A DNA stretch of 52,563 bases, counting the filler, from Bipalium vagum (lineage: Eukaryota), in assembly GCA_037834085.1 (NCBI GenBank). It is 3 parts of 3 records of this genome, joined end to end, with 100 filler letters (N's around TTAATTAATTAA, not from the genome) between each part and the next. Parts side by side here need not be neighbours in the genome. Positions count along the whole stretch, not along the records: positions 35,228 to 52,563 come from JBBMKC010070731.1; 2 more parts are not named here. The stretch is one strand, 5' to 3'. The notes below the pieces were generated by a model. It was given only the letters and a program-made list of their open reading frames with translations. It ran no database searches and was not told where the DNA came from. Shown here piece by piece: positions 1 to 52,547 of the stretch; the first letter of the stretch is position 1, and the number at the start of each line of letters is the position of its first letter. A program made the translations under genes and the position numbers.

Positions 1-955
1 CATTCTCAAATTTGATTGGATTTAATGGATAAAAAGTATTATCAACCTCTACTCTTAACGATTTAATTTGATCATGTTTAAATAAACTATTATTTTTTAA
101 AAGATTGGGTTTATTCTCTCTAAAACCTAAAAAGATATAAATTGGTTTGTTTTTAACGTAAAATAAATGTACATTAACTGATTCTCCTTCAGGAAGAGGT
201 CTTTCTATACAAAGTCTTGATAAATAGTTTATATTAAATGTTTTTTCTTCATTAATAAATGATAAAAACTCGACTTGGGATTCTGTAATTAAAGTTATTT
301 TTGGAATATGTAATTTTAATTCAATCAACTTTATTTTTGGAGTACCTGTTTTACCATAAAAAATTTCTTTTTCCACATTTAGTCTTCTTGTAAATGTTAA
401 TTCTTCTTCCATGTTATAAATAACTCTACCAAAATATTGTAAAAATTCAAACATTAATTTTAATGGAAATAAACCCCCTAATTTAAAAGTTTTTTTACCA
501 TCCTTTTCAACTGTATTGATTGAATATAATTCTTTTCTTTTATTATTTTATTATCCTTTATTATTTTCATATACTTTTTTTTCATCTAATATCCATCCAA
601 ATATTCATCAATCATAAAAAAAATTAGTAATTGAATTTGATGGTCCTAAATATTCAATTCTTTCAATAGGAGCTGATCCTAATGTTAAAATTGCATTTTT
701 AAATAAATATGGGAAGAAATTGTTTTCTAAAGTCATATCATCACCTGTTTTTATATCTTCAATTTCAATTTTATAACTAAATAAGGCTTCTGATAATTCT
801 AAAACATTTGCTTTATTATATAAATTAAATGTTAAAGTGCTATCTATGTTTAAATTTTCTGATATTGCTGTATTTAATGATATAGATGTATAATCTCGTT
901 TTTGTACCATTAAATCTTGGTGGTAAATATTTTTGTTAAAATTTAGTTTTGTCAT
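1..955 (-). pseudogene. Polinton/adintovirus major capsid protein (double jelly-roll, hexon-like), N-terminal part
   Basis: From ATG at 955: MTKLNFNKNIYHQDLMVQKRDYTSIS...TLENNFFPYLFKNAILTLGSAPIERIEYLG, stop at 608-610, then FRGLFPLKLMFEFLQYFGRVIYNMEEELTFTRR...KPIYIFLGF...IKSLRVEVDNTFYP. This resembles the recalled Polinton MCP pattern (LF..I.Y.L...EIE..E.PG; PLK.IFGF...Y.KVIY). Confidence 0.8.
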
Positions 956-1023
956 TTTTATATAAATAAATATAATTAAAGCGAACCTGGTTCTAGAGCC
1001 TTCAGACTTTGTCCTCATTATTT

Positions 1024-1752
1024 TTATTCAAATGCAGATGGTAAAATATTTTCATCATCAAAATTAATAAATAAATATTTATATTTTTCTTTCATATGAA
1101 AATAACACAAACAATCAAATTCATCTTTTTCAATAAAATGGGCTAACATTTTTGAATAAATTTGGTTTTTATCAGATTTTGAAATTTTAAATAAAATTAA
1201 AACATTAGAATTATTTCGAATACTTCTTAATGGTAAATCAAAAAATGATTGTGATAAATATATTACTGAACATTTATTATGTCTTCCTCTGGTAAATACA
1301 TTTCCATAATATGTTGATTTTTTTCACTTATTGCATCATTAAAAATTATTAAATTTTTTCGATTTTTGTCTAATTCTTTTGGTGGAGGAATTTCATTTGC
1401 TTTATTACTTAATGTTACCCTTATTTGTCTTTGTTTATACTCATAGTCTTCCTCATGAAATTTTATTATTTTTTTTCCATAAACATTTGATAAACATCTT
1501 CTTTTGAAAATCCATAATTAAAACAATCTCTTATATATTTAAGTGCTGGTTAAAGTAAAACAGTTTTTGAAAAAATAATTAAGTTATCATAATCATTATA
1601 GTTAGGAGTTAATAACATTTTATATAACAACTCTGTTTTTCCAGAACCAGAAGGACCAATAATTAACATTTTAAATATTGAAGGTAAATTTTTTGATTAT
1701 TAATTTTTATAGAATTATCATTTAAGAAATCAGAACAAAAGTTTTCATCCAT
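1024..1752 (-). pseudogene. A32/FtsK-like DNA packaging ATPase
   Basis: Manual translation across frameshifts: LPSIFKMLIIGPSGSGKT (Walker A, 1634-1657), NLIIFND (degenerate Walker B), TRGRHNKCSVIYLSQSFFDLPLRSIRNNSNVLILFK. These are hallmark motifs of Polinton/virophage packaging ATPases. Missed by the ORF track. Confidence 0.92.
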
Positions 1753-1768
1753 TTTTTAAAATTAAATT

Positions 1769-2573
1769 TTAAACTTGTTTTAAATGAATTGTAAAACTAA
1801 CATCTTCTCCATTAAAATCTATAAATTCCCCATCTTCATCTTTAATTTTAAATCTTATTTCATTAATAATTTTCATTATTAAAGGAAAATAAATTGGAAA
1901 TTTTGGTCTTTCAATTATTCTAGATCCTCTAGAAACATTGTTTGAAGGAAAATCAAAAATATTATTTGTTTTTCTCCCATTAAAAAATTCTCCATTTGCA
2001 ATATTACATTCAATCATAATTCTATTTATTTTTGTAATTTTAACTGTTTTAGATTCATGATTTCCTTCCTTATAAATTTCATTTTATTCGAATCCTAATA
2101 TATCACCTAATTAATTTTCCTTAGGAAATGAAACACTACATCCTTTTTCTATTTTCATTATACAGTTTAAAGAAGTTAGATTTGCTTTTATTTATCTTTA
2201 TCTTTATCTTTTTATCTTTCACTGTTTATCTTTTAAAGGCTCTAAATCTTCATCATCTTTAAATCCATTCTCTATATATTTTGATATTTCAGAAATTTCT
2301 TATGTTCCCGGAGTTAATTTTAATTTCATAGTTTTATTCTTTCCTTTAGAATCTGTCACAGTTACATCTATTCTATTATTTTTTTTCTGTAATATTAAAA
2401 AAAGAATTATAAGTTGAAAAATAAACTACAGCTAATTCATAATTTAAATTTGGATCAAGAATTAGAGGAGATTCAAACGTGTAGGTTATATCTGATTTTT
2501 TAGTTTCTTCCATAAATGATGTTGAAAATTTATTTGATAATTGATTTGATATTTATTTTAAAGTAACATCGAT
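1769..2573 (-). pseudogene. Minor capsid protein (penton, single jelly-roll)
   Basis: FESPLILDPNLNYELAVVYFSTYNSFFNI..NN..., LTPGTxEI, LGDILGF, INRIMIECNIANGEFFNG...IIERPKFPIYFPL...IKDEDGEFIDFNGEDVSFTIHLK. Matches the recalled adintovirus/Polinton penton pattern; broken by frameshifts. Confidence 0.85.
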
Positions 2574-2631
2574 TTTTAAAGAAAAAATATAAATTTGAGA
2601 ACAAAGTCCAAATTTCAAGCAAAGCTCTCAT

Positions 2632-3407
2632 TTAATCAGAATCTATATCAAATTTAACAAGTATTTTTTCATGTGTCTTCAGATTAATTTTATTCCGTTT
2701 TCTTAATTTATTCAATATTCTTAAAATTAAATGATCCAAATTATCATGACCCGCTTTTTTAGAAGCTAAATATTTTCTTAAAGTTATGAATTGGTCAACT
2801 AAGTGTTTTGGTTTATAAACTCGATATCTTTCTCCCTTTCTTTTTAATTCTATATTTTTATTTAATTCGGTTTTTATATTTTTAATGTAAATACTAACTA
2901 AACTATACTTTGATAATTTTATTATTTGAAGATAATTACTCAAATCTTTTATGTTAAATGGTGTTTCTCTATTTGAATTAAATTTACCTTCTATTATTAA
3001 TTTTAAATCTTCAGTTAATTCAAATAATTTTTCATCATTTGGTTTTGGATCAATTGGATTACTATATTTTAGAAATACATTTTCATTTTTTTAATAATTA
3101 AAAAGGGTATTTCATTTATCATTAATGTGTTACATATCATTGATGGATTAATGGATGTCGTTAAATTAGAAGTATTTAAATCCAAAGTTAAAGATGGTTT
3201 ATCTATTATATTTTCTTTATTAACTTTTTCATTTTTTACACTTAGAACATCGGTAGCTGGTTTATGAAAATATGTTAAATCTTGTTCAAAACCTCTTTCT
3301 GCTTTCCACTGATTTAATTGATTAGTTTTAAAATTTATTTCGTGCATCAATTAATTCTTTTAACTTTTTAGATTCTTTTTGTATATAACTTTCATTTTTA
3401 TTCCATT
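2632..3407 (-). pseudogene. Conserved adintovirus/Polinton protein (called gasderminX in adintovirus nomenclature, from memory)
   Basis: The pieces join into one gene: N-terminal VKELIDARNKF...FEQDLTYFHKPATD, middle FELTEDLKLII...KDLSNYLQII, C-terminal HLVDQFITLRKYLASKKAGHDNLDHLILRILNKL (consensus L..RL.LL.ASK.AGN....EI..I..EL). Includes ORFs 3069-3350 and 2632-2943. Confidence 0.6.
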
Positions 3408-5110: not shown

Positions 5111-6517
5111 TCAAGGAAATAAAGTCTCTATAGATCCTATAACAAATTTTGTCTTATCATCAGGTTTTCTTGACATGATTGTCTCACACGAATCGTCCAT
5201 GCTGGTGAGATAGCCAAAACAAAGGCTTGGTGTGGAATGCCCAAAAAATAGATCGATTTTAACTTGGTTGTCCTTTAATGTTTCCTTTCTCAAGCTGACA
5301 ATCCCAAAAGATTTATAAACATCGCCAGTTAGAAAAGCCGAATTCATGAAGTTACTTTCAAGGAAAGACTGAAATTTATCGTGAAAATTATCTTTTTCGT
5401 CAATGGACCAAGAAGAAAGAGCTTCACAAGTTTTCATTGGAAGCATGGTACGCATCAGCTGCTCTCCCAATCCAGTGGAAACTGCCGTCACAGAGATGCC
5501 GTTATCTTTCTGTTCAGAATAACATCCGCAACCAAACATACATGACTGACCCAGCCTACCATCTTGTTTCAAAAATATTCCTCCACTCGAAGTAGCTGAG
5601 ACAACTCTTCCCAGGCTATCGGCAATAATAACCCCAACGGTATCCAATAAATTAGGATTTAATGACAATTGGTTATTGATCATTGACTTCGGCTTCTTTC
5701 TAGGGACTTCGTCCTCACTGTCAATGTCGTCATATGTTTTTTCTTTTTCAAATAACAGCTTTCTATACTTATTACATTTTTTTTGTCTTTCAACTGTGAT
5801 CAACTCTTCCTCATTGACGTGACTGATTTCTAAAAATAACCAAGAGTTGATGGTTACTAACAGTTAGTAAAATTTATTTTTTATTAATACTCGAATTATA
5901 TAAAATATGTACTATCATTATTAATATTATCTGAAAGGATTAAATGAAAAATTATTAGGATTTAAGTTAAATAATAAATCAAATATCATAAGAATTGTAC
6001 AATCAGCTTCAATTTATTTTTTTAAAAACTATTTCATATAATTTTAATTAAAAATAAATTAATAAAATATAAAATTTGTACTTTGAGAAATTGCCCATTC
6101 AGTTGCATCTTTTCCAACCAAAACACTTGGTGGATATCTACCACCACTCAATAAAGAGTGTTCTAATTGTAAATTAAGCAATTTTTCGGCTACAAGAATA
6201 GGATTTTTAATATTACTTAAACATCCCACAGCTCCAAATCTCAGACTTTGTCCACACATGATTGCTGCTTCACACTGTAATTTACCACTAATTGTTAAAT
6301 TGCTACCAATTCCGGCATTAGTACAAGGATCATTTTCTAAAACTTTTACACCTTCTACAGCTGCTCTTGAAAGCTCAGGAAGGGAAACAGAACAATTTTG
6401 TAAAGCAGACTTAACTGCACTACAAGCCTTTTTACAAACATTCTTGTAAATGTTTTCACGTGATAATGAATGATTACCAGCACCGGAATGGCAAATAATA
6501 ACATAGTTATAATTCAT
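5111..6517 (-). CDS. TASP1: Threonine aspartase 1 (taspase-1, Ntn-hydrolase / type 2 asparaginase family); exons 6517-6082 and 5829-5111, 384 aa
   Basis: HSGAG, LENDPCTNAGIGSNLT, CEAAIMCG, FGAVG, NPILVA in exon 1. Autocleavage site LLD/TVG, SATSSGGIFLKQDGRLGQS, STGLGEQL and GHSTPSLCFGY in exon 2. Phase-1 GT..AG intron 5830-6081 joins the exons in frame. Confidence 0.95.
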
Positions 6518-7029
6518 TTTAAAATTTTATAGATTAGTGAAAGTAAGAAATCAAGTTAAAAAATAAGTTATAAATTTAAAAAATTTTAAAGTTCTAAATA
6601 ATTTAAAATTTCACCATATTGAATATTTAAACAAAACCTGATTTAAAATAATTAATAAATAAATTTAATGAATAAATACCATTTTATATAAAATATTTTA
6701 AAATATTAATGGTACTTGTTTCGTTTTTTTAAACCAAAAAGTTTATATAATGTTGCTTTAACGAGAATTTTCGTTAACAGTGTTGTATTTATTATATTTT
6801 CTTATGTTATTGTGAAATGTAGACTTTAGAATTCCAGTAATTTCTGAAATATTTCTAATTGTAAAATTTAGATTAAAAATCTGGATAATTTCAAATGTCA
6901 TTGATAAATTATTCTCTGATAATTCATTTGTGAATTCTATAAAAAAATCAATCCTAGAGTGTCAATGAAACATGTAGCGAGATGTTTATACAAAAAACAA
7001 AAAGATTTACCTGTATCGAGAGAGATACA

Positions 7030-8073
7030 GATGAATTCAGGACAGTGTTTCTGTTGTGGTGATAGTGATCATAGAAGATTCTCTAAACAGTCGTCTTTTT
7101 CAGCAATTATGCAAAGACATGAACGCTGATCACGAGTTTTTTTTTTATTTTACTGAAATGGTCGGTTGTTTTTATGAGTTGAAAGAAAACATCAAAATAT
7201 TCATGGAAATACAAGGAAAATATGAATTTGCGGAATATTTTGATCATCAGTCTTGGTTGTGCAGAATCACTTATCTATCAGATATATTAGAACAATAAAA
7301 TATCCTGAATCTTAGATTACAAGGAACAAATTTAACTATTATTGAATTTCAAAACAATCTTAGAGCATTCATAGCGAAACTGCAAAACTGGCGAAGTAAA
7401 ATGGATACAGGAAACATGGTAATGTTTGAAAAACTATCCAGTTTAATAGAAGAATTTAAATGCGAAACCAATGTCCATTTAAAAAAATAGATCACAAAAC
7501 ACCTCAAATCTCTTGAAAATGAGCTTCTGTATTATTTCCCTGAGTTAACTAAGGAAGAAGCTTTACTAGTACGATATCCCTTTTCTGATTCCATTGATAT
7601 ATCCAGTATTACTGATGATGTGCAAAATGAATTCTTGGACTTTCGGAACGATTCTGCGTCTCGCCACTTATATGACGAAAATCTGCTAACTCAGTTCTGG
7701 TGTGCTATGTATCACTCATATCAAAAAGTAACAATGATTGCGTTTGGAATGTTACTTCCCTTTGCTTCAACATATCTATGTGAGAGTGGATTTTCATTAC
7801 TTCTGCAATTGAAAAGCAAAACAAGAAACCCACTTAATGTTAATGCCGAAATGATGTTGGCATTAAAACAAACGCAACCACGTATTTCAAAGCTAGGCAA
7901 TAAGTTACAATATCAGCAGTCTCATTAAGATTTGGTGATTGAATAAATGTTTTGTTATTAATAATAAATTATTAGTAAAATTAATTGTTATTGTATTTTA
8001 TATATAGTGGGGTCGCCAACATTTGTTTGGTTCAAAAATGGGGTCGCGATACCAAAAAGGTTGGGAAACCCTG
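7030..8073 (+). mobile_element. hAT transposon relic (Buster/Charlie group), 3' half with right TIR
   Basis: WLCRITYLSDI, LNLRLQG and the C-terminal dimerisation motif LLPFASTYLCESGFSLL...RNPLN, with internal stops. The end reads GGTTGGGAAACCCTG (8073), followed by CTTTAAAC (TA-centred 8-mer). Confidence 0.88.
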
Positions 8074-20055: not shown

Positions 20056-22229
20056 TACTTTGTTATTGTAATATTGAATTGTATTATAAATTTTTCATTT
20101 GATATTTCTCCTTATATTCATTTTTTTATAAATAAGTTTTGTCCGGAAACTGTTTCCAACCCAAAACAAATTAGGAGTTTTGAAAAATAATTTTATTATA
20201 GTTATAAGATTACAACATGGAATAATTTGTAGAAATAGCAACTGATTAATGATAATAAAATAATTTAAATTATTAAAATATAATATAATAAATTATTTAG
20301 AGATAAAGAAGATCAACCTGTATAATTTTCTTTAATGATAACAATAATTTTCAATAATCCGAAGGAAATTTTGGGACATTAAGGAAGTGTCCGAATTTTT
20401 AATTAATTTTTAAAATTATTAATTAAGATTTATTCCGGCAGTACTCCAAATAATTAATGGCCAGATCAAGACTGGACATTTGGCAAAAAGTGATTTTTTG
20501 CATAAATTGATAAGTATAATAAAAATAACGATTAATTTTCTTTACTCATTTTTAGTTTTAATTGCTTTATAGCAAAATTGGGATCTTCTTAATGGGTAAT
20601 TTTGGTTTCTTTAGTAAAAGGAAACGGTCTATTATTGTTGAAGACAAATGGAAAATGCGTTTTTAAACGAAACTATTGAGAAAATAGCAAACTAACCCTT
20701 GCTATGTACAATAAGGCTTAACAAGATTTTAATTGTCCTGTTTTCATATTAAATTTTCATAGTAAATATTTATAGATATAATTTGCATAGATATATCAAA
20801 TATCCACAAATCTAAGTTCTTTCAATGGAGAATTAATAAGTTTTATTCAAGTGCCATGTATTCATATAAGAGATTGACAGTCTTTGTTAAATAATAAAAG
20901 AATTGTCTTATTTAGTTATTATATTTCCCCTACCTAAATAGTAATGAAATTGATTATGTTTTGCATTCCTATTTTAATTGATAAAGGTGGTTTATTTAGT
21001 GCATAATTAAAGTCAATATTTCTTTCCTTTAAGTTTTAGTTTCCGTCAGGGTAACAGACGGATTTCAATGAACTTCATATTTCGTTATAAAAACTAAATG
21101 TCGGTTTGTAATGCACGAGGTATAGAAAAGTGACCACTTGCATTTGTAAGATATCAAGTTTTCTAAAAAAGATATATTTTATGAAGTTAAAGTAGTTTAT
21201 ATTAAAATTTTGATATTAAAAGTATAATAGATATACAAAAATATGGATATCTTATTAAATTAGATCGATTAAACAACAGAAGTAATATTTCAAATATAAT
21301 TCATTAAAATATTAAGTGAGAAATTTTTTATGAAAATAAGCACATACATATAGAATAATTGCTATTTCAAATCATAAACTCTATATGACCATATATGTAT
21401 TAAAATTTACCAAGGAAGAAATCATTGAAATGCTATTTAGCTTTAGAAAAATAAGATAAAAGTTTAATGTAATGATTTCCTAAAAATATTTTATAACCTT
21501 AAGCGATTTTTATTTTTCCCCCGTATATTTTAGTTAATTTCTTTAACTCGAGGGAGCATACTTTTCTTTAAGAGCACAACGATAATGGATTATTTCTGAT
21601 CAATCAGACTTTAGGTCTGACAATGAATTTCATAGAGATCCTCCGTAATTGAAGGTCAGAAATAGTGGGTTCAAGTAGTAAGTGAATTTGGATATTTCAA
21701 AAATCTTAAATGTTTATTAGAAATAAATCCAAGTAAGACTTTATTAATTTCCTCACATTAAATCAATCAGTACTAAACAGTGAAAAAAAGGTTTAATAAA
21801 ATTTCAACAGAGGTCGGTATACAAAATAAAAAATTGATCCGCAGATTATTATATAAAAATGACATTAATCTGGTGAGGAATCCGAATTAGGTCGTGCATT
21901 GTACTCGATTGATTAATTAGCCGGTTCAAAAAATGATCTTATTTCGATCATCGGTTATCTTTTTATAACAATCAGAGAATGCAAAAAATGAAATTTAAGG
22001 AGCACCTTTATCATAAAAAAATTGATCAGGAAATGATTTGATCAACGAAATTAAAAAACTTATTAGTTATAAAATTAATTATCAGTGGGCAATAATTGTT
22101 TCTTTAAATTTTTCTTTCATCAATATTTAATCTGGATTTTATATGTGAGGAATAAGAAATAAACAAAATGATACTCATTTCATAACAATTAGAATTTGTT
22201 AATAAAGGGTACAAAAAACAATATAAATA

Positions 22230-23778
22230 AAATTTATCAAAGCCTTCGCCGCCAATTGCTTTGGCCAGTGAAATAATTTTTGATGATGTGGTTGTTATTT
22301 GATTTGGTACGCCTTTATTAAATACGCATTCAGGTCAAACTTCTTTCCAACACGCGTTTAATGTGTATGGTTTAATTTCAGCAATTGCTAATGCAACATG
22401 GTTTATACAGTTTAAAATATTAAAATCTTTCCAAACATCTGTAACTGTGATTGATTCAGTTTCTAGCTTATCGAAAATGTAATGAAAGATTGACTTAAAA
22501 TAATATTTTTGAATGCCGAAATAATCCCCTGATCTAATGGTTGAATTAAGCTAGTTGAATTTGGAGGGATAAAAATTATGTATATGTTAAGATGTTCTAC
22601 CTTTTCATGATCTGGTGCATTATCAAGAATTAATAAGATATATTCAATTATATTATATTCTCTTTCATATAAATTTTGACTTCAGGTACGAAGCAGTTAT
22701 TAAACCAATCGCTGTAGTTACCAAAGCTTTTTTGTTAGCCATAAAATGTATAGGTAGCTTATTTCGATCTTTTCCTTTTATTCCACGTGGTTTTAAAGAT
22801 CGATTTACAAGCAGTGGTTTCAATACCCTATCTCCAGATGCATTGCTGCAAACCAGTAAAGTAACTCGATCTGTGGCAGCTTTAAAACCACTTGCAGATT
22901 TTTCGAAACTTGCTATATAGGTACGATTGGACATTTTTTTCTAAAATAATCCAGTTTCTTCAGCGTTGAAGACTTGATTGGCACAATATTCACCATCTTT
23001 AATAATTTTGGAAAATTCTTCAGGGTATTTTTTTAGCGGCTTCTTGGTCTGCAGAAGCGACCTCACCTTTTACCTTCATATTTTTTTCATATTTCTTTTG
23101 ATAAAACCAGTTAGCCATCCCGTAGTAGCCGAAAATGAGGATGTAGATGACTCTGATTCCCTTATCTGTTCGTAAAACCGTAGAGATTTCTCTTTAAGTA
23201 AATATCTATTTATCGGAACTCTTTTTTGAGTCAAATCTTCAATCAAAATTACGAGGGCTTTTTCTGTTTTTTCTTTTTAAGGATCTCTTGAATATGATGA
23301 TAATTTAGAGCTCAAATTTGTACCGGATCTAATAGATTTCTGTATTGATACCTCTTTATTTTAAATTGTTCTAATTGTTGATGCACCCAACTTTAAATGT
23401 TTACCAATTGCTGTAGATTTCTCTCCATTCGTCAAGCGATCAAGTATCATAATTCTGGTTTCTAAGGAAATTGCACTTTACTTCTGGGGTTTAACTTTAC
23501 TGTCACACATTTTACTTAAGAAATAATAAGTGAAGTTTAAATTTAATTAAACACAATTATTTTTGAAAGAGCTTTTTAAAAACTAAAAACTTTTATTTAA
23601 ACAAATTTAATAAAACCGTATACGATTATATACAAAATATATAACAATTTTTAAAAAACGTACAAAAAATCGCATATAAATAGAGTATAGTTTCATTAAA
23701 AAAACCGCATAACTTCAAAATCGCATTAAAAAATTCGCATAAAAAGAGAATTGCGTGTATATAAATAGAGGATGGCTG
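22230..23778 (-). mobile_element. pogo/Tigger transposon, decayed
   Basis: From ATG 23510: HTH (AISLETRIMILDRL..GEKSTAIGKHLKLGASTIRTI), FSATTGWLTGF, SGFKAATDRVTLLVCSNASGD, LDNAP, FIPPNSTSLIQPLDQGII. Tigger-like end CAGCCATCCTCTATTTATA at 23778 with ATGCG subterminal repeats. Confidence 0.9.
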
Positions 23779-27319: not shown

Positions 27320-28342
27320 CTGGACAATGCACAAATTTGAGCAATTATTTATGACGATTGGAAAAATAACACAAGCACAAATGAAACTGTCTCAAAACTT
27401 AACGAGGTGCTTCGTGGAGGAACAATGAAACTGCGAACAGTGCATAGTTGGATCAAAAAATTCAATAGTGGCGATTTTTCATTGGAAGACAAAGAGAGGT
27501 CTGAAAGCCCAAAAGAGTTGGAGGATTATCAAATTATGGACCTTCTTGAACAAAACAGATCAATTAGTGCTAAACAAATCGCTTCTGAGTTAAATATAAC
27601 CGATACAGCCATAAGAAACCAACTGAAAGCGTTAGGATTCACTTGTAAACTCGACCAATGGGTTCCCCATCAAGTAGCTGAAAAAAACAAGTTGGATCGC
27701 ATTGGAATTTGTTCAAGACTTCTCGAAAGAAACCGAAATGATCCTTTTCTCGATAGGATAGTCACTTGCGATGAAAAGTGGATCTATCATGACAGCATAA
27801 CCAGATGAAGATAGTGGTATTTGAAAGGAGAGCCTCCGCACAAAATTGAAAAACGCAACCTTACACGAAACAAGGTTCTTTTATGCATTTGGGGGATTCT
27901 CATGGAATTATTTATCATGAGTTTCTCAAATCCGAGGAAACCACTAATTCTGATGTCTATTGTGACATGCTTGTTCATTGTTCATATTGTTCATGCCATT
28001 ATGAAGGAAAACCGGAGCAGTTTGATAAACCAAAAACAAGTGATTTTCCACCAAGATAATGCCAAGCCTCACAAATCAATGAAGACATTGAAGGTTTTTC
28101 AGGAATTGAACTGGACTCTAATGGAACATCCGCCATATAGTCCCTATATCACCCCATCCAATTTCCGGGTATTACAGAATCACTTGATGGGTAAAAATTC
28201 TAAGAGTTCAGAAGGTATAAAGAATGAAGTACTTTCTTTCTTTCATTCAAAAGATCGAAATTTCTTTAATACTGGGATCAATAAACTTCTAAATAGATGG
28301 GAGGCAGTAATAGAAAAAGATGGAGAATATCTGGATGATTAA
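27320..28342 (+). mobile_element. Mariner (DD34D) transposase pseudogene, near full length
   Basis: QWVPHQ, IVTCDEKWIYHD, KVLLCIWG, FHQDNAKPH, HPPYSPYITPSNF, GINKLLNRWEAVIEKDGEY; stop at 27806-27808 and frameshifts. TIRs too decayed to call. Confidence 0.92.
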
Positions 28343-36312: not shown

Positions 36313-36463
36313 NNNNNNNNNNNNNNNNNNNNNNNNNNNNNNNNNNNNNNNNNNNNNNNNNNNNNNNNNNNNNNNNNNNNNNNNNNNNNNNNNNNNNNNN
36401 NNNNNNNNNNNNNNNNNNNNNNNNNNNNNNNNNNNNNNNNNNNNNNNNNNNNNNNNNNNNNNN
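36313..36463. other. Scaffold gap (151 N)
   Basis: Run of N with no linker. Confidence 0.97.
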
Positions 36464-36571: not shown

Positions 36572-39500
36572 CTGGATCATTGCCACTACTGGAATGGAAG
36601 CACCTTCTCGAGTCAAATCTGGTTTTTTCTTCCAAACCCTTTCTACTGCTCTTCTGGCAGCAATGAAGTTGTCATCTTCAGGATTTCCAAGGAAAGGATG
36701 GCCGTCTTGAAAGGGAATCACTCGCAACGAATTTGGACTGCCTCGGTCCCTAAAGATTTTCTCTATGAAACTCACTATCATTTTTATCACATTATCCGGA
36801 TGCTGATGTGGTACGACTCGTGCTGACACTTTACCAATGACCTAAAACAATGAAAAATTATCATTATTTTTATTATTATGATTTCAATTTGTTTTACACT
36901 TTTTACTCAGAATTGTTTAATTGTTTACTCTCAAATAAATCCCTATCATCAGCAGAGTTGTTGGCCATGGTAATAGTAGCATAGTGATATTACCTAAATA
37001 AATAAGGCCGTATGTTGAACTAAGTTTCCCTGATCAAGGGTCTAACGTTCTGGGGGTTTATGTACATTTTCACAAAAACTTTATAAAATCAGTTTTGTTT
37101 AAAACAGGAAGTTTTTGTGACATCGACAGAATTTCTTTAATATCAATAATATATTAATAACAAAATGAATAATTTATATTTTTAATCATTTAAATTAACG
37201 GAGGTTATTTATAATTTATAATAAATTATAAATTTTGTACTTATTAAGAAATAAATTCTAATTATATATCACAAAGAAATTATAGATACAAAACCTTATG
37301 TGGTATGTTACACTTTCCTCCTGGCTTGTCCCACGAACCTTGGACTCCATGAACAGTTATCCACGGATAGCGCCAACGGTGCAAGAGATTTTCCTCCTTG
37401 GTGTCAAAGAGAAACTTGTTGGCTCCGATGTTACTGGACGCCTTTTCCATATCGAAATCAATGGTTGAATAATATTTCCTGATAATAATTATATATTATA
37501 ATGATATATTAATAATTATATATTTTCGCCACTTTTCATTTAATAATTAAAAATTATCATTTGTCGAGAATTTTAGAGGTTTCCATCTACCAATTCATTG
37601 AAACACATTTTTGTAACCTTAAAAATGTTCTTTTTCATTAAGAGAGGTTCGCAGTTGAGAAACAAATAGCAATCTGAGTGATACATTGTTTTAAAGCATA
37701 TTTTATAACAAAAATATATCAGGGTAGCAAAATAGTTCTTGGAGAAATTAAAATTAAATGTTAGTAAAATGTTTTATTGAAAATATAACATGTATTACAG
37801 GTAATGTGACAAAAAACTGCTTAGTCTAAAATATATGCATCATTGTATTTCACAATCTGTTCCCAACAACCTGTTGAATGTCTTCTTTAAAGAAATCATG
37901 ATCTTTTAACTTTGAAAAGATTGAACTTGTGAAATTGTTTCACCACTCGATTTGAGTTTAGTGCCAGTTAAATTATTCTGCAAACATCCCAATAGGTAAT
38001 AATCTGAAAGGGCTTTGTCCGGAGAGTAAGGGCAATTTTTCAAAACTGTCCAACGCAGTCTGTCAAGCCTTCGTTTTGTTTAATTTGACATATGTGGCTT
38101 TAATATTTTTTAATATTTAAATACTTGTAATTTTAAAATTTAAAGGAACGAATCTGAAAACTCAATTATAAAAGTATTTCGTCGCACAGAATCATTTTTC
38201 ACACATTTTACATCAATTTCATTTCGACGTGAAAAATATAAAACAAACCGTTTTCTGTCTAATTAATGGAAGATTAATTACGAGGGGGTTGTCCTTAACC
38301 AACGAGACGAAGACATGTAAAGTTAAGTTTTTCATGTAAAATTAAGGTTTCTTAATTTTGGTTTTTAAAGTATTTTAAGAAAATATTTAAACTTATTTAT
38401 GATTGACTAAAAATTGTTTGTCATTTCATTAAAGTACTTTAAAAGATACTCCTAGAATATATTATTTCAAAAAATGATCTAAATAATGAAAAAACTTAAA
38501 TGATTTATGTATAACGAAAGAAAAATTTTGGAAAAAAAAACATTTTAAAATCGATACAAATCTGTCAGGAATTTAGAAAAATAAAATATCGAAGCTGTAT
38601 GTGTTCCATGAGTTTGTGGCTCATACACCCTAAAAATGTTTATGATCATTTTTTCCGGAATTGGATCGGATCTGGTATGAAATGCTTGAAATCACTCGGA
38701 TCATTTTTGGAAAAGCATAGAACATTTTATTGATTAACTTTGTTAAGTAGGTCAATCAATCAAGTGTCACGTTATTCAAAAGAAGTATCACCAATCCTAT
38801 GTATAACTGCATAAATATAACTCCACTTGAACTAAAAAATTAGGACACACAAACCGTAATTTTAACGATTCAATTAACGCTGTTTCTCAATCTTATTATA
38901 TAAACAAATAGATTTTAATAATCAATACAAACTGATTTTAGATAAGGATATATTTTATCTACTAATATTAACATTTTCTCAATTATGATCAGCTTTATTA
39001 TTTATGTTAATAAAAGATAGAACATGGTCCAATCCTGTTGGTACTCAGATTAAATAAAAAAATTAAATAATGTAACTTTAATTTTTTTAGTTTTTGTAAA
39101 CTTTAGGTTAAATTTTTCAGTTCCAATGACGACGTTCTTATCACCAGCTTATTAAGGATATTTAATAATTATTTTGGACATTTTTCACATTAAAATTATT
39201 TTCCACAGAATGCTTATTATATCAAACAAACGTTTCGAGAAAAATTTTAAAATCAAAGTTCAAAAAACTGTGAAATAAGTCAAGTGTGAAAAAAAATATA
39301 AAACTTTTCATCTAAAAAAATATGACTGAAGATTAAATGAAATGCGAAATCTGTAATCATACAGAAGAGAGTAAGAAGGGGAAAGAAATAATAGGAAACC
39401 GACAATTACTCAATCATCCAAAAATCCTGGATAAACTTATTTTGGAAAATGGAGACCGAATTTCTATTGAAATTCCCGAAACTGGAACGACATTTCATGA

Positions 39501-42500
39501 AAAATAAGTAATGTAATCTTTACTCGATTTCGGTTTTTGTCAAGGCGTCCACATCGTCATAAAAATGGGGAATTTGGATTTTGCCTTTATAATCTCTCAG
39601 GGAGTTCAATATAAAAACGAGGTCGGCCATCGGTTCGGCGATGCAGCCTCCGTAAACGCCGGAATGTAAATCGTAATTGGAACATTCTATTTCAATGAAA
39701 AAATAAGTCACTCCTCTCAGTCCGTACGTAACGCAAGGTGTCTCGTCCCCCAGCCAATAGTTGTCACTGATAACGATGAAGTCCACGTCCTAAGAATAAT
39801 TATAAATAATTGTTTGGAACAAGTGATTATTTTTCCAACCGATTAGATATTTTTATATTATTCACAGACATTAAAATCGACTTTCAAACTGAACGATTAA
39901 AGTCAGAAAAAAATATCCTATAATGTATACCAGTTAACTTTAGAACCCGTGATAAATTTATTTGCGGAAAGTCTTGTAAGGCAGATTGTAAGTCATTGTC
40001 AATTAATATTTTTATAGTAAATAATAAAAATTCAAAGTGTATTTAAAAGTCCCTAAAAGTTGTTTTGATATCGTCCCATTTTTTGAAGAAGTGAGAAAAC
40101 CCTTTCGAAAATGTTTTCACTTATAAAAGCCTGGCATTTTATTTAGCTGACAGAAAAGTTTGGATTCTCAAAGATTATATTTTCAGTAATGTTTTGTTTG
40201 AATTGAGTCTTGAATTTTAAAGTATTGGCTTTAGAGCTGAACATTATTTCTGCACTAATCTAATATGAATTACTTAACTCTTTGACGAGCGGCAGTTTTA
40301 ATTGTATCACTTTTTTTAAGACTTCGAACTACTTGAGTAATAATAAAACAATTAGGAATAATTTTTATATCCGATTTCGTAATTAATAGAAATGTCTATT
40401 TTGTTCGATTTGCAACAAAATGAAACTTCTGCTGCCTCTAAAATCTAAAAATTCATGTCTATAAAGGGTTAAAGATTGTTACCAAATATATAGGAACTTT
40501 TGTGACGAAATAAATCAATTTTTGAAATTTTAATTTAAAAATATCTTGATAAAAAATGTCAAAAATTAAATTTTAAGTAATCCTTAGGGTAATCAATTCA
40601 TTTATGCATGAAATTTTAGTTTCTAAAATTTAATATATACAAGGTGTCCCATAAGTCCCCGCGGAAAGTAAACTTTAATATTTCTTAAACAGATTGAGAT
40701 ACTTAATCGTTTGCTTTATAAAATTAAAGGCAAATCTTTTATTTTTTATTTCATATAAAAATACAACAATTGTTTGAAATGACTACCATTAACTGATATA
40801 CATAAATTCATATGTTTTACAATATTTAAAAATACACTATTCAAAGTTTCTGTGGTAACACTTTTTATTTCTTCGGTGATTTTTGTTTTTAAATCGTCAA
40901 TATTTTTGATTTCAGATTTATATATCTTATTCCTTAAGTGGCCCTATAAATAGAAGTCAAGAGGAGTTAAATCTCGTAAACGTGGAGTCCATCGAATTGA
41001 ACCATCTCTTCCAATCCACCGGTTCGGAAAATTGGCGTCAAGATACCGTCGTACATTCGCTGAAAAATTCGCAAGAGCTTCATCTTGCTGAAATACCAGA
41101 GATCGTATTTTGTACATTTTCCTCAATTCAAACATAAAATAGTCCTGAAGCATTTATAGATAATTTTTGTCATTAACAGTCTCATCTTCAAAGAAATACG
41201 AATCGATAATTTTTTTTGACATAGCACACCAAGCATTAACCTTCTGAGATTTTTTAGTTATTTCTAAAGTAATATGTGAATTACTTTCTGACCAATCTCT
41301 GACGTTAACTTTTTTTACTAATCCTTATACGTAAAACGTTGCTTCATCTAAAATGAAGATATTTTTCTGAATATCCACATTTTCCAACATTGGGACCAGT
41401 GTTCGCGAAATGGAACATGTGGTTGCAACAGATCGAACACTGCCGGTCACTTTCAATAACTTCACTCATTTTCTGAACTTCATTTTCAGTGATCAGCCTT
41501 GGTCTTCCAGAACGTTCACGATCTTCTACCGACCTAATCTCACAAAAATGATGAAAAGTCTCTCTTATAGCACTTTCACTTGTTGAGGTTTTCCCAAATT
41601 CGGCATTTAATTTCCGTTTAACAACACAAATCTAGTTGAATTTGACCATTATTTTGATTCTTAACTTCAAATCAAGCGGCATTTGTTAAATCTAATTTTA
41701 AAATATTAAAACAAAACTTAGACTTACATACTTTAATATTATATAAATAGAAATTTCAATCGATTGAATTTACTGAAAGATATTTAAGTTTAGTTTCCAC
41801 GGGGACTTATGGGACACCCTGTATAATATAATTTAATTATAAATTAAAAAATCAATACCTGTTAAAGAATCCTTTTTATAAGTCAGTAAATCATTTATAA
41901 AAATAATCGAGAATTATCTTTTAATAATAAAAAACTATTTCAGAAAGAGACCTTTAAAAATTTATGTTTTTCTTCAATCAATAATGCTCTGAAACCTTCG
42001 GATCCCGACTCTTGGTGAGCTTCGAATAGAAATTTTAAATTAACAGGAAATGGAATTTGCAATTTCTGAAGATAAAAGTATAAATAAGTGTTAATTCTCG
42101 ATGACTACTTTATGTTATAATAATAATTATTATTATAATTGATAATTAAGAATATAATTGTGAAGAGAGTTTCTAGATATACCTCGAAGAGGGACTTCCA
42201 GAAACACCGAATCATTTGTGTAACATACATTTTTAGATCAGTTACTTAATATATTGTACACTTAATATTATACTTAATTTTATTTTGTATGTTGTTTAAT
42301 TTAAAATTTTATGTGAGGGACCTTTCGTTCTCATTGAAATGATAGATTTATTCTTAATTTTAATTAGGTTATCAAGGTTGTAATATTTTTATAGCTATAA
42401 ATCGTTGTAGTCAATTGTTTTCATTTTTATTTCAGTCAATTAAAGTCTCTAGGACATGTAAATTTTTGGAGTGAAATTTATTTGTCAGCATCCATTAAAA

Positions 42501-45500
42501 AAGTATAAAAAATAAAATACGGCTTCAGCCTCAAGGAATATTAAACATAACAGTACCAAAGAATTATATAGAAAAATTTTAACAAAACTTTGTTTTTGAA
42601 ATTAATAATTCAGTTGAATTTTTTATTCCATTTTTGAATAACTGGCCATCCACACTTAATTATAAGAACAGAGTAAAAATGACCTCAGGTAGCATTTTTT
42701 ATACTAAAAATCAATTTGATTAAACCTTTATTATTCTTCGTTACTTAACTACTTTATCAGCATGATTTAAAGTTCTCAAATAACATTGTAATTCGAAATA
42801 GATGCAGCATGTTGTTTTTCTTATAAATGACTAATTAAATCTCAAAGTAATAGTAATTTTTATCTTTAATTTTGTAATTATATAGTATATTATTTAAATT
42901 TTTGGAAAATGGTCGATATTAAGGTCGCTGCACTACCATAAAACGCTTCGCTAATTAAAAAAATCACTCTAAGACTGGATTCTAAAAATTATTACAACAA
43001 AAGAAATATAAAATTCATAAATATTAAATTAACCTTGACAAAAGAACAACAGTGATATTAAAGTTCAATCTTAAATACATTATTATAAATTACTTATTAA
43101 ACAATTATATGTTTATGCAAAAATATATAGAAAAATATTCAAAATATATATAATTCTATGCAAAAATATATATAAATCTATTCAAAATATATAGAAAATT
43201 ATTCAGAAATATTTAGAAAATTATTCAGAAATATTTAGAAAATTATTCATAAATATATAGAAAAAAATTCGATTTTTTCTATTTAAATTTGATCACATTT
43301 TAGTCAGCCAAAAATATCAACTGCATGGTTGCTATTAAAATGTCAGTTTTCATTGCTTTGTCATTTGTTTTCTATTAAATCAAATTTACGGGAATTTTAT
43401 GCTTCAAAATCAAAGACGGATCTTTCAATGGACTTTATTAGTGACAAGCTATGCAATCATTTCGATCGAAATCCTGAGGATGTATTGGTGATAGACAAGT
43501 GCAGGTTCCATCAACGCAAAGATGTTATTAAGTTGTTGACAGAATGAGGTATTGCTTACAGATTTCTGCGACCATACTCGCATAAGCTGTAATTCGCAAA
43601 TGCTGTATTATCCTTTATGAGAACCATTATAGATCGGGACGATTGATTACTCAAGTACTCATGCATAACTATATAGATTTAAGTGATTATTTTCGCAACA
43701 TGAGGTGGTTTATAGAAAAATCTTGGCGAGACAATTATTTATTTAGTTTTTATTTCCATTATATATTTCTGAAAATTTTTCTATATATTTTGAATAATTT
43801 TCTATATATTTCTGCATAACCCTGTAATAAACAATAAATTAATTATTTTAAAAGCTTGTTTAATTAATCATAGTTTTGATAAGATTTTTACATTTAATAA
43901 TTTAAAGTTTCTAAATTTATAAAAATCATATTTTACTTGAAAATAATCATTTTTTTGTTTGGATCTACAGGAACTTAACTAATTATTATCTATATTTATT
44001 TACGTATCACATTTCTCAAGACTATCTATTTATTTCATTATTACGGATATCAATATAATTTTATGAAATATAAAAATTAAGGAAAAAAGAAATACATTCA
44101 AAATAAAAGACTATCAAAACGTTTTCTGTATACTTTCTTTTAAAGGAGTTCAAACATTTTAAGAATTAATAATGTTTTTATAAGTTTAAACACGTATTAA
44201 TCTTAACTGTAATTATTCCTGAGATATGAAGTAAAGGACGGTTCAAAAAATTATTTTTATAGATTTCTGAGTTTATCCCAAGACCTGATGTTCGAATTAG
44301 TAAATATTGAGATCTTCAGTACTAATAGATGTCCAAATCATAACTTTTTTTAAAGTTTTGATTTTTTTCAAAATGTTATACCAATTGAAACAGTTTCAAT
44401 GTTGCTGGTAATAGCCATATTTTCTTTACATGGTTGTATTGCATAAAATGAAATAAATTTCACCAAGAATAAATTCTACACAATCGATCACATTTCCGCT
44501 TTGCTTGAGATTGTTGGGTTTCAGTTCATAAGTTTCAGTAAGTATCTTTTCTATCTTATGATATTTAATTAGGTCGACAAAATTCTGATATGACAAGGAA
44601 CACAAAATCAGCATATTTTCCAAGTTTTCAATGATCTTAGGTGCTTCTTCAATAAAAGAAAAAAAGAAATAAATTTCCCATCAATTCACTTTTTTGACAA
44701 AAGCAGATCTACCATCTTTTTATGTACTTTGAGCTTACAGTCCTCTCTGTCATAGGCAGTCGCCGCTGCTGCAAAAGAAAATAAAATAATTTATGCAGCG
44801 CCAGCTGCCTGTTATATAATTATATAAGTCTACTAGTACAAAAATAATCTACTTGAAAATATAATCCACTCAAGCAAAAGAGAAATTAATTAATTACAAA
44901 GAATTAGGAATAAATATTTACTTAAAATGTTTATTAATATTACTTTGAAAGATTTTATTAATATTATTAAGTGTTACATCTAAATACATTAAAAATAAAA
45001 ATAATTTTTAATTTTATAATTAATTTCAATCAAAAAATTTTAAAAAATATAGAATTGAAATGCCACAGTTCGATATTGAATTTATGTTTAGCAATTTCGA
45101 TTTTTTCCAAAAAATAATTAAAATTTACTGACTTCAAACCTCTTGAAGTTTATATGCTTAAGGAAAAATGGGGTGGAATTAGGAACAGGCGTTCCACTGT
45201 AATTTGATTGTAACTGCCTATTTTGAAGTAGATAATATAATTCGATTAATAAATTGGTTATTTGTATGGTGGGATATGAAAGGACCCATTCATTATGACC
45301 TCCTCCAAGCTGATGAAACCCTTAATGCGGAATGTTATAGCAAACAATTTCTGCATTTGGCTAAACAAATTGAGAAAAAGACCTTTTTTCTGGCAAGGAT
45401 CGCGTAAGACCGCATGTAGCGAAACATACTCAGGAAACAATTTTACAGTTAGGCTGGGAAGTTCTTCCTCCAGACCTTGCTCCTACAGATTTTCATTTGT

Positions 45501-46594
45501 TTCGTTCAATGCAAAATGAATTAGCCTGATGTTATTTCAAAATGTTGACCAGATACGAGATTTTGTCAAGAATTATCTTGCGTCAAAACAAATATCTTTC
45601 TATCGTTCCGGAATTCAGCAATTACCAGAAAAATCGCAAAAAATGATTTCCAATAATGGATATTATGTTGATGACTGATTTTTTGAGTCCCTATCGTGTA
45701 AAAATAAATATATTACCTTTTGATAACATTTTATTTTTTTAAAAATGGACTAAAACTTATGCCTACATCTAATAATTATCTGACTATACCCTTCGGGAAA
45801 CTTTTTGATATCAGATAAATTGGTTCTATTTTACTTTAACAACCCTATGTTATAAACCGACCAATCAAAAAATAGGGTTATTTTCAGATTTTTTAAAAAT
45901 TAAACATTTTGAACTTCTTATAAGATGGATCTATTATAATTTTTACCTGTTAAATACATTAAAAACATAATAATTTTAATAAAAACTTGTTAAAAAATGC
46001 GAAATAAAATAAAATCTAAAAATAACCCTGTGTGATGATTGGTCTGTTTATGACACAGGGTTGTTAAAGTACAATAGTACCAATAAATTAATTAAAAAAC
46101 CTGAAAGGCTTCAATGACATTCAGCCAAGTAACACAGGGTCCTTTATCATCCGATGATCCTCTGCCCACAAGATTGCCGGTTACTTCCACCAAATCAAAC
46201 GGATCTGTATCCCAACCCATTTCATCAGCAGGATCCACATCAAGATGGCCATAAACCAGCACCGTTCTTTTGGTCAAATCTCGGCCCAGTCTGCCGATAA
46301 TTACTCTTGGTAAGGGAATGAACTCTCCATTGATTCTCCTTTCCACTCCAACTTTTCGCAATTGAACCTCAACATTAAGCCTGAAGTAAGTGAAAGTTTA
46401 CTTTCACACAATTCTCAGTTAAAGTCTTACTCTGTTAATCGAGTGCCGAACCAGTTGATCATTTTGTCGCAATCCTCTCGAAACTCTTTCAAGTTAGAGA
46501 TGCTCTTGTAGTCACACGCGCATGCCAGACGGTTACAGTAACGTTTTTGCCTCGAATCAAAATAGTCAAAAAGATGGGACAGCTTATAGTTCAT
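36572..46594 (-). CDS. CNDP2: CNDP2-like M20A dipeptidase family protein; exons 46594-46431, 46380-46101, 42065-41952, 39789-39524, 37478-37295, 36841-36572; terminal exon(s) not visible
   Basis: [85 protein letters not shown]. All six exons join in frame through GT..AG introns. Orthology versus paralogy to CNDP2 is not resolved. Confidence 0.92.
37720..38080 (-). mobile_element. Mariner 3' fragment (intronic)
   Basis: Decayed [23 protein letters not shown] and [11 protein letters not shown] motifs. Confidence 0.6.
40640..41821 (-). mobile_element. DD41D (rosa-type) Tc1/mariner element with both TIRs, in CNDP2 intron 3
   Basis: TA-flanked TIRs CAAGGTGTCCCATAAGTCCCCGCGGAAAGTAAACT / CAGGGTGTCCCATAAGTCCCCGTGGAAACTAAACT. 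FQQD and LTPLD are separated by exactly 41 residues; NRWIGRDG motif; RSGRPR. Confidence 0.9.
43108..43824 (+). mobile_element. Non-autonomous IS630/Tc1-like element whose TIRs consist of tandem ~21-bp units
   Basis: Units like AAATATATAGAAAATTATTCA in tandem at 43120-43265 and inverted at 43760-43815. Right end TGCATAACCCTG|TA. Internal [11 protein letters not shown]...YRFLRPYS (DDE_3-like). Confidence 0.75.
45260..45772 (+). mobile_element. Mariner 3' fragment with right end
   Basis: [47 protein letters not shown]; end AACTTATGCCTACATCTAA|TA. Confidence 0.85.
45822..46081. mobile_element. Merlin-type MITE, 260 bp
   Basis: About 70-bp TIRs beginning GGTTCTATTTTACTTTAACAACCCT / GGTACTATTGTACTTTAACAACCCT; 8-bp TSD GATAAATT / AATAAATT. 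GG termini with an 8-bp TSD fit Merlin. Confidence 0.85.
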
Positions 46595-49034: not shown

Positions 49035-51322
49035 CTATGGCATTTCTCTTTTGTTCTTTCCAATATTTTTAAAATATCTCCAAACAAAATTAGGCTTTTT
49101 ATTGTTTTGCATTTGTAAGGTATTTCTGAGTTTGGTTTCTTGGTGGGGATCCTTGAATGGATTAAATAGAGGTACTTCATGTTCTGAATTGAACTTAACC
49201 ATGGGATCCATATCCCTTGACTGGAAGCAGACAGAAGAAGAATGTTGATTAATGTTGGTCTCGTTTCTCTCATTCATTCTAAAATTTCTGCTGTCTGCGG
49301 ATCCATCTAGATCGGAATTCAAGGAGATTTCCTCAGAGAGATTAACTCTGGCTTTATGTTGCTGCTTAATGTCACCTTTTCCCATTATAGGAAAGATAGA
49401 ATCATATTCCATATCATTGGTCATTTCCATGGTTAAACGACCAAGGCTTTCATCATTGTAAGCTAAGCTGGAAGAATAATATTTAATTTCCATTCCAGTT
49501 TCTCTAGGTGAAATGAGCTCAACATCATCATTTCTTATGGAATTACATAACTTTTCGGAGAACCGAACTAGATCTTCACTTTGTGGTTTTTCTTCCAAAG
49601 GATTGTAGAAGGACTCATTCGACGAAATATCACTTTGTAACCAGGAATCCTCGGTCGAATATAGAACAGATTCAGAAGACGCAGTGAGGGTTTTCGGAAC
49701 ATCTTTGCTTCCCAAATCCTTTTCACCTATAATATTTAAAGGTGCAAGAGACTGTATCAATAAATTATTATCGACATTTCTTTCAGGCAGAATTGGTGGA
49801 TCCATGGAAGGATTCACAAACCTCACGATGTCCTAAAGGTATCGGAACAATTAAATCAGTGTCTTTGTAAATGTTTATTTATATAAATAAAGTGATAATA
49901 TATAAAATGAGTCTTCAAAGGATAATTTTAAGTTATAAAACAGCGAGGAACTTACAATTGGTCTTTCTGGAAGCGCAGATATGATGAAGGACTTTTTGTT
50001 CTTTTGAATCATTCTAAAATTGAATACCCGATATTAATCTTTTTACTTTCATTTGATGTCGACCCTTACCTGTAAGCGTATTCGTTTGTTTTGATCAGAT
50101 CAATCAGAAACTCATTATCTGATGTCTTGAGGGTCTTGGACTTTTTCTCTCCGGAACTGTTAACGAATACAATTCTAAGGTTTCCAAATATTTCATGGCA
50201 GTCTCGGAAATCGTTCCACTTGAAGGTTTTGGTATTCTCTTTGCAAATTGATATTCCCACAGGAGAAATTCCTATTTGAAAATTTTCCGTCTTCGTAGAC
50301 TGAAATAGAGTTATTGATTGGTCAAACACTGAGCAAGAATACTTACCCTTGCATGATACCGCTCCTGTCCGTAGTCAGGAAGATCTGAGACGTCCTTGAT
50401 GAAATCGAGATCGGCTTCGAAAGATGTATAGTAACTAAATGATAAATTATTATAGTATTCATTTAAGACAATTCCGAAGTACCTCAGTGATTTATAAACC
50501 TCAATGAAGTCCCTCTTCAGCGATTTATCATTCATGATCTCAGTGTTGAGTAAGATTTCCTTTCCAAGGTGAAGCTTTTCCAAAACACTCTTTTCGAAGC
50601 CTCCAAACTGACCATAAAACAACTTGGCAGACAAATAGTTACTGAGATCCTGAGAACATTTGATTCTATATAAATAAAAGTAACAATAATAACATAAAAT
50701 AATAAATTCCTCATACTTTTTATGTCGAACATCGTTCTTGAGCTGTTCGATGAGATAGTACATGGTCATGTAGTCCTCCAGGTATGCACAGTTCGGAGGA
50801 TAAAACTGGAACATGAAGATGAATGTTATATTTTTTATTCCTTCTAAATGAGAGAAACATAATATTTTCTATTTATTTATTTATTTCTTACTCATTGTCT
50901 TCAAGATATTTTCTTCACTGCTTATCCATCTCTAAAGGTATCATTATAAAAGTTGAGAGTTCCATTGAAGACTTACCTTATTCCCACGAGACTTGGAAAG
51001 GTACTGAAGGCCGAAGTATTGTTTTTCAATAATAAACAGATCTTTGCAAACCTTGGTGATCAAGTCCGACCCTTTATAAAATTTCTAAAATATATATTAA
51101 ACCAATATTGATAAAACGGCACCAGCGTACATTCAATGTATAAATTTTGACCTCTTCGTTAAAGAGTCGAATATGACAGGTGTACTTTTTAGCGTTCATG
51201 TTATCCAAGTTCTCATGGAAATACAATTCTTTGGTTCTTCTTTTTTCCATCGCTAAATCCTTATACCTCTCAAGCCGTGGAATGTCAATGGAGGAGTAAT
51301 ACGTATATTCATCTGAACTCAT
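49035..51322 (-). CDS. Divergent FERM-domain (band 4.1-like) protein, 9 exons: 51322-51131, 51084-50977, 50931-50892, 50843-50717, 50665-50483, 50434-50347, 50299-50070, 50013-49956, 49832-49035
   Basis: CHIRLFNEE, KGSDLITKVCKDLFIIEKQYFGLQY, FMFQFYPP, YYLIEQLKNDV, EADLDFI...LPDYG, IGISPVGISI, TFKW span FERM lobes F1-F3. Seven introns of 45-56 nt and one of 123 nt keep the frame. The tail is Ser/acidic and low complexity. Confidence 0.9.
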
Positions 51323-52113
51323 TTTCTTAAAGAAATAAATGTGCGAAATTTTTTAAACGTTTCTTATATACTTTTTTACGGGAAAAAATTACGCAACTTC
51401 AGTAAGTATCCGAACGGACTTTATCCGTAATTTAATATTTAGGGAAATGATGAATTTGAGGGACAACGTGTACATCGTTAGTTCTAGTAATGGAAGGACG
51501 TTCAATGAAACGAGACAATATTTAGAATAGTTTATCTTATAATTATGTAGTAGTAGAACGATTCATTAACTTAACTCAAGTAGTAACATGAAAGAGTCAA
51601 CTAAACAGGTTCCGTAGTTTTCGTATACACCATATGAAGAATTGGAGAGTAAGAACGAAAACAAATGTGAAAAGGTAATCTTCATATAGACAAATGATGA
51701 AGAAATGAATACTTGATGAGTGTTGAAAGTAGTAAAATACAAATATGTAAGATCTCAATTTAAAGTTTGATTGGTCTCTGTTAAATGATCGTACTGAACC
51801 AAATCTGTAGAAATTACAGATTTATACGATCGCAGATTTTTTGGCATTGTTGAATAATGTCATAACATGAAAGTTTGCTAAAAAAATGTTAAAGCAGAAA
51901 TCAACGAAACTTAAATATTTTTCATAAACAAATCAGCCAATCAAAATTGACAAGTCAAATAATAACGAGATTTTTTAAAATATGTAAGTGAATCTTAAAT
52001 ATCCCGAAATGTTTAAAAAAAAAGGGAAATATTTTTCCTGGATAAATTATTATTAATTACATAATAAAATTAAATATAAAGACATTTTGACAAATGAAAA
52101 ATAACTTAGAAAT

Positions 52114-52547
52114 ATGACCGATACTGAAAATTACTATTATTTCAATCTACTCAACAATTCCAGATTTGAAAGGTATCAAGCCTCGGCGATGGAAACCAGA
52201 AAGACCTCCAAATTGCATTGCAATGAGGACCTGGATCAAAAGAAGACAAAGACGTTTACCTGTGAGGTTCGACTCTTCAATGAGGTTGTCAAAATGTATG
52301 AGTTCAATGTAAGCTTCTATCGTCTTATGAATAAAGGTTTAATATTTCCCACAGAAATCGTACAAGGGATCCGATCTGATCACTAAGATTTGTAAGGACC
52401 TCAATATCATAGAAACACAATACTTTGGCCTGCAGTACCTTTCCAAGTCTCGTGGGAATAAAGTAAGTCTTCAGTGGAACACTCGTCTTTTATAATGATA
52501 CCTTTAGAGATGGATAAGCAGTGAAGAAAATATCTTGAAGACAATGA
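52114..52547 (+). CDS. Second FERM-domain paralog, divergently transcribed, runs off the window; exons 52114-52308, 52355-52462, 52508-52547
   Basis: CEVRLFNEVVK, KGSDLITKICKDLNIIETQYFGLQYLSKSRGNK, RWISSEENILKTM. Same intron positions and lengths (46 and 45 nt) as the minus-strand copy. Confidence 0.9.

Follow-up and report, generated by a model that had tools for sequence, protein, structure and literature searches.

A CNDP2-like gene of Bipalium vagum with glutamine in place of the general-base glutamate: a candidate pseudo-peptidase

A CNDP2-like gene of the flatworm Bipalium vagum encodes glutamine at the position of the catalytic general base, Glu166 of CNDP2, within a conserved and open reading frame. 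The gene lies on the minus strand of the window, the stretch of 52,563 nucleotides (filler included) joined from three parts of assembly GCA_037834085.1 and analysed here at its full length. Our preferred interpretation, to which sequence comparison lends about an even chance, is that the product is a conserved, non-hydrolysing pseudo-peptidase that is predicted to hold two metal ions and a dipeptide-like ligand. Members of the CNDP2/Dug1 family carry the general-base glutamate almost without exception. A conserved natural E166Q would point to a selected non-hydrolytic role of this fold or to a second chemistry.

The initial annotation reported that the EGMEES loop of the canonical enzyme is replaced by EAHQES, and both the minus-strand reading (GAA GCT CAC CAA GAG TCG, 42023-42006) and the alignment to CNDP2 bear this out. 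When human CNDP2 (4RUH) is aligned via the relative P0127, which has the same loop, Gln stands opposite Glu166 and the next Glu opposite Glu167. The codon was also checked against sequencing data. A Logan contig from run X1 covers 41802-42899 at a depth of 24 and, among the rows listed, shows 0 other letters and 0 gaps, so that exon 3 is reproduced with 0 differences. Run X1, the one run in which the sequence was found, is genomic, because introns are covered, and its contig is not independent of the assembly because X1 may be the assembly's own sample. No RNA run was listed as containing the sequence, which speaks neither for nor against expression. A sequencing error or simple assembly slip behind the CAA codon is thus ruled out as far as contigs go. 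An alternative exon 3 bearing Glu-Glu was also sought, and none is present within the window.

Six exons, all bounded by GT-AG introns, provide 426 open codons with no stop or frameshift (Table 1). Exon 2 matches Peptidase_M20 (E 1.5e-08), and the best matches of the gene are CNDP2, CNDP1 and Dug1, which places it in the CNDP2/Dug1 (M20A) family. A signal-peptide-like extension is absent from exon 1. The third-position GC content of exon 3 is 0.24, compared with 0.38-0.56 in the other exons, though its protein sequence is the most conserved; this exon comprises 38 codons only.

Table 1. Positions of the CNDP2-like gene and of its active-site codons in the window
Feature	Position	Strand	Remarks
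Exon 1	46431..46594	minus	aa 1-55; ATG aligns with canonical CNDP2 N-terminus
Exon 2	46101..46380	minus	aa 55-148; preceded by 50-nt intron
Exon 2, His99-equivalent ligand	46247-46245	minus	
Exon 2, Gln103 to Asp	46235-46233	minus	Asp101 also in exon 2
Exon 2, bridging Asp132	46151-46149	minus	
Exon 3	41952..42065	minus	aa 149-186; EAHQES loop
Exon 3, His165 codon	42017-42015	minus	
Exon 3, Gln codon CAA	42014-42012	minus	general-base position, Glu166 of CNDP2; residue 166 of spliced frame
Exon 3, ligand Glu167 codon	42011-42009	minus	
Exon 4	39524..39789	minus	aa 187-275; ligand Asp195, Tyr197 and trans-acting His228 kept
Exon 5	37295..37478	minus	aa 275-336; lid/dimerisation domain; Thr330 to Cys
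Exon 6	36572..36841	minus	aa 337-426; Arg343, Glu414, Ser417 kept; His380 to Gln, Gly416 to Ala
Run of 151 N	36313..36463		starts 108 bases past exon 6 donor, behind pyrimidine-rich stretch

The description of these six exons as free of disabling mutations holds, and the gene model is nevertheless incomplete: a seventh exon carrying His445 is needed. This metal ligand is uncovered in the window because the six exons end approximately 50 residues before the family C-terminus. The last exon (at least some 50 residues, His445 included) was not found in the called bases of the window by tblastn with seven homolog C-termini or with the C-terminus of the relative P0142 as query, and a hidden Markov model built from 48 C-termini gave a best window match with E 0.32, inside a taspase gene. 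The missing exon may reside in the run of 151 N or in one of two further N-containing gaps downstream. An acceptor-like site at 36530, which would imply an intron of 42 nt, would lead to a stop after four codons and before His445.

Homology searches illustrate how rare the substitution is. The exon 2 search returned 120 hits among 272 candidates, only canonical EE proteins; Glu-Glu is present in 119 of these 120 when aligned, the remaining one being a short and misaligned fragment of 177 aa, and Gln is present in none. Glu166 is likewise found in 48/48 full-length eukaryotic homologs, a set in which four are animal-type (44-48% identical to the window protein) and the rest are fungal or group on the fungal side. 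The searches with exon 3 and exon 6 produced one hit each, among 41 and 144 candidates, respectively. When exon 3 was compared by phmmer with 1.84 billion representatives, nine hits were obtained, of which one carries Gln, seven carry EE and one, a fragment from a fungal cluster, carries Gly. A metagenome scan added four loci at 38-71% identity, and a search of Rfam gave no match. Other departures from the canonical site were seen in passing. P0016 (Chironomus) and P0134 keep EE and have Arg at the Tyr197 position, and P0131, a fragment from a fungal cluster, carries two tandem copies of the loop, both with Gly where the general base would be.

The single hits for exons 3 and 6 are the basis for judging whether the Gln form is conserved, and the evidence accordingly comes from one relative represented by two fragments. 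P0127 (131 aa, from MetaClust, found with exon 3) has the same EAHQES loop as the window protein, identical across a stretch of 11 letters, and P0142 (221 aa, from the same kind of source) was found with exon 6 as query. We assumed that they are two pieces of one orthologous gene, which could instead be a paralog. Identity between the window protein and this relative is 35/37 in exon 3, 68/89 in exon 4, 37/52 in exon 5 and 72/90 in exon 6, or 212 of 268 residues overall (79%). Exon 3 exceeds the rest in conservation (177/231 for exons 4-6; Fisher p=0.009), a value that is biased toward significance because exon 3 had itself served to find P0127. The predicted fold of P0142 has a mean pLDDT of 73.6. 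This fragment keeps the fifth ligand, His445, together with Asp442 and Glu449; it differs around the ligand by G443K, A444I, S446H and N448D, and ends in a Ser/Thr/Pro-rich tail of approximately 30 residues with low model confidence.

A tree of 27 rows (21 of the 48 canonical sequences, three bacterial and three Gln-type; LG+G4; P0134 omitted) unites the three Gln-type rows in one clade (100/100) within the animal-type group (92/96, not starred). The clade has a stem of 0.81 and tips of 0.07-0.19, and the end branch leading to the window sequence is 0.09 (0.07-0.19 for the relative). A quick tree of 57 rows has the same shape; its stem is 1.18, P0134 joins the clade weakly by a long branch, and the grouping with animal CNDP2 receives an SH-aLRT of 100. 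The animal-type group comprises only four or five rows in these trees. A long stem followed by short tips suggests a burst of change and then renewed constraint, and part of the stem length could come from a lineage that evolves fast in general. The proposal that the altered gene has been maintained, for which orthologs with HQE were to be sought, thus gains support from a diverged relative that carries the identical EAHQES loop and all of the ligands that its fragments cover, and from the shape of the tree.

Much of the active site is retained. Residues are numbered as in human CNDP2 (positions in P0012 plus 3, by gapless alignment), and the list of pocket residues was taken from PMC12655758 and PMC11626516. 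According to PMC6271292, the CNDP2 metal ligands are His99, Asp132, Glu167, Asp195 and His445, and Glu166 is the catalytic glutamate. The window protein keeps H99, D101, D132, E167, D195, Y197, L210, H228 and R343, as well as E414, G415, S417, I418 and P419. The visible ligands had been described as kept, and all four in the window are, while the fifth is seen in P0142. Within the set that binds the carboxylate of the substrate, R343, S417 and H228 of the partner subunit are present and T330 is replaced by Cys. Both the window protein and the relative carry G164A, M165H, E166Q, T330C, H380Q and G416A; Q103D is present in the window, at a position outside the fragments of the relative. The changes Q103D, T330C, H380Q and G416A extend the initial description, and G164A also occurs in P0134, which is an EE-type protein.

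Two further candidate signals were considered and rejected. A statistically remodelled pocket is not apparent, as site residues are changed at 4/20 positions compared with 36/144 conserved columns (p=0.78, no enrichment), and cysteine content and pI fall within the canonical range or at its edge. The relative shares the non-canonical residues of the window protein at conserved columns (21/28) about as often as at variable ones (44/63), which likewise cautions against reading too much into the changes. Of the family-invariant columns, 10/69 are changed in the window protein, and no canonical sequence exceeds 5 of about 86, which favours a special history.

Replacement of the corresponding Glu by Gln abolishes activity in other M20 and M28 enzymes; our literature search for such inactivation found no paper. 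In the M20A mechanism, the glutamate takes a proton from the metal-bound water and afterwards delivers one to the leaving nitrogen (PMC11511702); with an amide side chain in its place, turnover should therefore be blocked. Mutation of E166 also lowers the synthesis of Lac-Phe and BHB-Phe by CNDP2 (bioRxiv 2024.09.09.612087). The name pseudo-peptidase is apt in one respect and predictive in another: a catalytic residue is replaced within an intact and conserved reading frame, as in pseudopeptidases (PMC11266112), which are in addition expressed proteins with a non-catalytic function and no activity, and the expected inactivity derives from the role of Glu166 in the literature. Active CNDP2 is a Mn2+-dependent, homodimeric dipeptidase with Glu166 as its defining general base, a position at which both the window protein and P0127 have Gln.

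Such a protein might have arisen by duplication of CNDP2 followed by loss of the general base in one copy, which would have kept its metal site and its grip on the carboxylate (Arg343, Ser417 and, from the partner subunit, His228). It would fold as a cytosolic CNDP2-like dimer, load two metals and bind a dipeptide or N-acyl amino acid without turning it over, much like an engineered Glu-to-Gln substrate trap. The protein could then bind or sense such compounds in the cytosol or, alternatively, pair with an active paralog and supply that paralog with His228 in trans. The replacement of Thr330, which helps to hold the carboxylate, by Cys weighs against the pseudo-peptidase reading, as do the lack of enrichment among site changes and the possible early stop after exon 6. 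A bolder and unlikely version is that an animal lineage has made the CNDP2 duplicate into a metal-centred receptor devoted to a dipeptide or an N-acyl amino acid of the Lac-Phe class. It would be a natural substrate trap, its pocket retuned and its tail used for signalling, and the first such M20 sensor. CNDP2 currently attracts interest because it makes Lac-Phe and BHB-amino acids; a natural trap or sensor, if real, would open non-catalytic functions of the CNDP2 family to testing.

The closest known proteins are CNDP2 itself (human 4RUH; mouse 2ZOF and 2ZOG; M20A), with which the window protein shares domain order, length, metal ligands, Asp101, His228, Arg343 and the Glu414-Pro419 frame, and from which it differs by the substitutions given above, G443K to N448D and the C-terminal tail being additional in the relative. 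CNDP2 is the best PDB match for exon 2 (mouse and human) and also for exon 4, whereas CNDP1 (serum carnosinase, 3DLJ) is slightly better for exon 5 (57 vs 50-52 bits), exon 6 (58 vs 53-56) and P0142 (164 vs 150-152). Exon 5 also has a 9-residue run that is identical in human CNDP1 where CNDP2 differs. This likeness, which we treat as a lead only, may reflect convergence or old paralogy. CNDP1 ancestry is not shown, because the snail CNDP2 P0012 is closer still in exon 6 (41/90). CNDP1 keeps EE, unlike the window protein, whose N-terminus aligns with that of cytosolic CNDP2.

Yeast Dug1 (4G1P) is a fungal member of the same family, and the nearest in-family precedent for loss of catalysis is yeast Dug2, which has a non-catalytic Dug1-like domain. 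Dug2-type proteins are WD40-M20A fusions of fungal origin with an extra N-terminal domain. Unlike Dug2, which we compared by description only, the window protein groups with animal CNDP2 and is without this extra domain. A (Dug2p-Dug3p)2 complex of yeast has been described (PMC6508711). Outside the family, ADAM7 (HQLGH), Ecm14 (E270K) and Shh have intact zinc ligands and a substituted general base (PMC11266112), which is the same logic as in the window protein but in other folds (M12, M14 and M15). The tables of that 2024 review of pseudo-metallopeptidases cover M1, M12, M13, M14, M15, M16, M24 and M41; no characterised M20 pseudo-peptidase appears in them. No description of a Gln-type CNDP2, from flatworms or otherwise, was found in the literature searched, which excluded most subscription journals.

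The main rival to a pseudo-peptidase is an active bimetallic enzyme with a different chemistry, which has this standing because H165, D103 and H446 are near the site in sequence. We consider it fairly unlikely. Such an enzyme might act on an ester, thioester or lactone, whose good leaving group requires no proton donor, or might use an acid/base at another place, for instance His165, Asp103 or the His adjacent to His445. All five ligands (the fifth in the relative) and Asp101 are kept, the exon with the changed loop is the most conserved, and new ionisable residues are present in both sequences (H165), in the window protein (D103) and in P0142 (S446H and N448D). The idea that the new adjacent His acts as the base found no positive support in our analysis. 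A His preceding an intact EE pair occurs in M18 peptidases, and therefore His165 need not be a substitute base. Non-peptidase hydrolases already exist among M20A proteins, but those described keep the catalytic Glu (PMC11511702), and some pseudoenzymes have turned out to be active (PMC11266112).

A structural or scaffolding protein, in which metal would only stabilise the fold and the pocket would be disused, appears rather improbable. The finding that site changes are no rarer than background is consistent with a scaffold, as is the Ser/Thr/Pro-rich tail of P0142, but the retention in both proteins of R343, H228, E414, S417, Y197 and the whole altered loop is above what a disused pocket would be expected to show. 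It is quite improbable that the gene is simply the sole, fast-evolved CNDP2 of its lineage and still a slow dipeptidase. The protein is diverged throughout, as its identity to the four animal-type homologs indicates, but it has changed more invariant columns than any canonical sequence, most activity would be gone without the base, and the Taspase-1 N-terminal piece in the same window is still identical to human at 65/141 positions (hand count). Finally, a truncated or decaying window copy that has lost its last exon, even if the copy of the relative is functional, is very improbable, since the absence of exon 7 from the called bases and the early stop behind the possible 42-nt intron are opposed by three separate N-containing gaps downstream, by an intact frame and splice sites, and by an end branch no longer than those of the relative.

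The window as a whole is AT-rich (GC 0.21-0.33 per 2 kb), with spliceosomal introns and many remnants of DNA transposons. Together with a Taspase-1 gene and a FERM-like gene, these features indicate an animal, and such a composition may be similar to that of triclad flatworm genomes. A multi-exon gene directly upstream of the CNDP-like gene (approximately 49038-52340, minus strand) has a weak match to the FERM central domain (E 0.0003, below the cut-off) and a Ser-rich last exon of 265 aa without a Pfam match. The Taspase-1 (threonine aspartase) gene at 5114-6526 (minus strand) consists of two long coding pieces that differ sharply in GC3 (0.15 vs 0.37). At 2-3350 (minus strand) resides a Polinton/adintovirus-like endogenous element with its genes in several broken frames, including a double-jelly-roll capsid piece at 2-547 (Pfam DJR-like, E 2.4e-13) and an A32-type ATPase piece at 1027-1323 (E 0.004). 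Broken transposon remnants are located at 27341-28339 (plus), 6923-7925 (plus), 22107-23276 (minus), 40574-41941 and 42626-43993. They include mariner elements, with Mos1-type HTH and DDE matches, and others that we take to be hAT-like and pogo-like. In run X1, the elements in the introns of the CNDP-like gene have a summed depth of 12,000-38,000, compared with approximately 25 for unique DNA, and their copy number is therefore very high.
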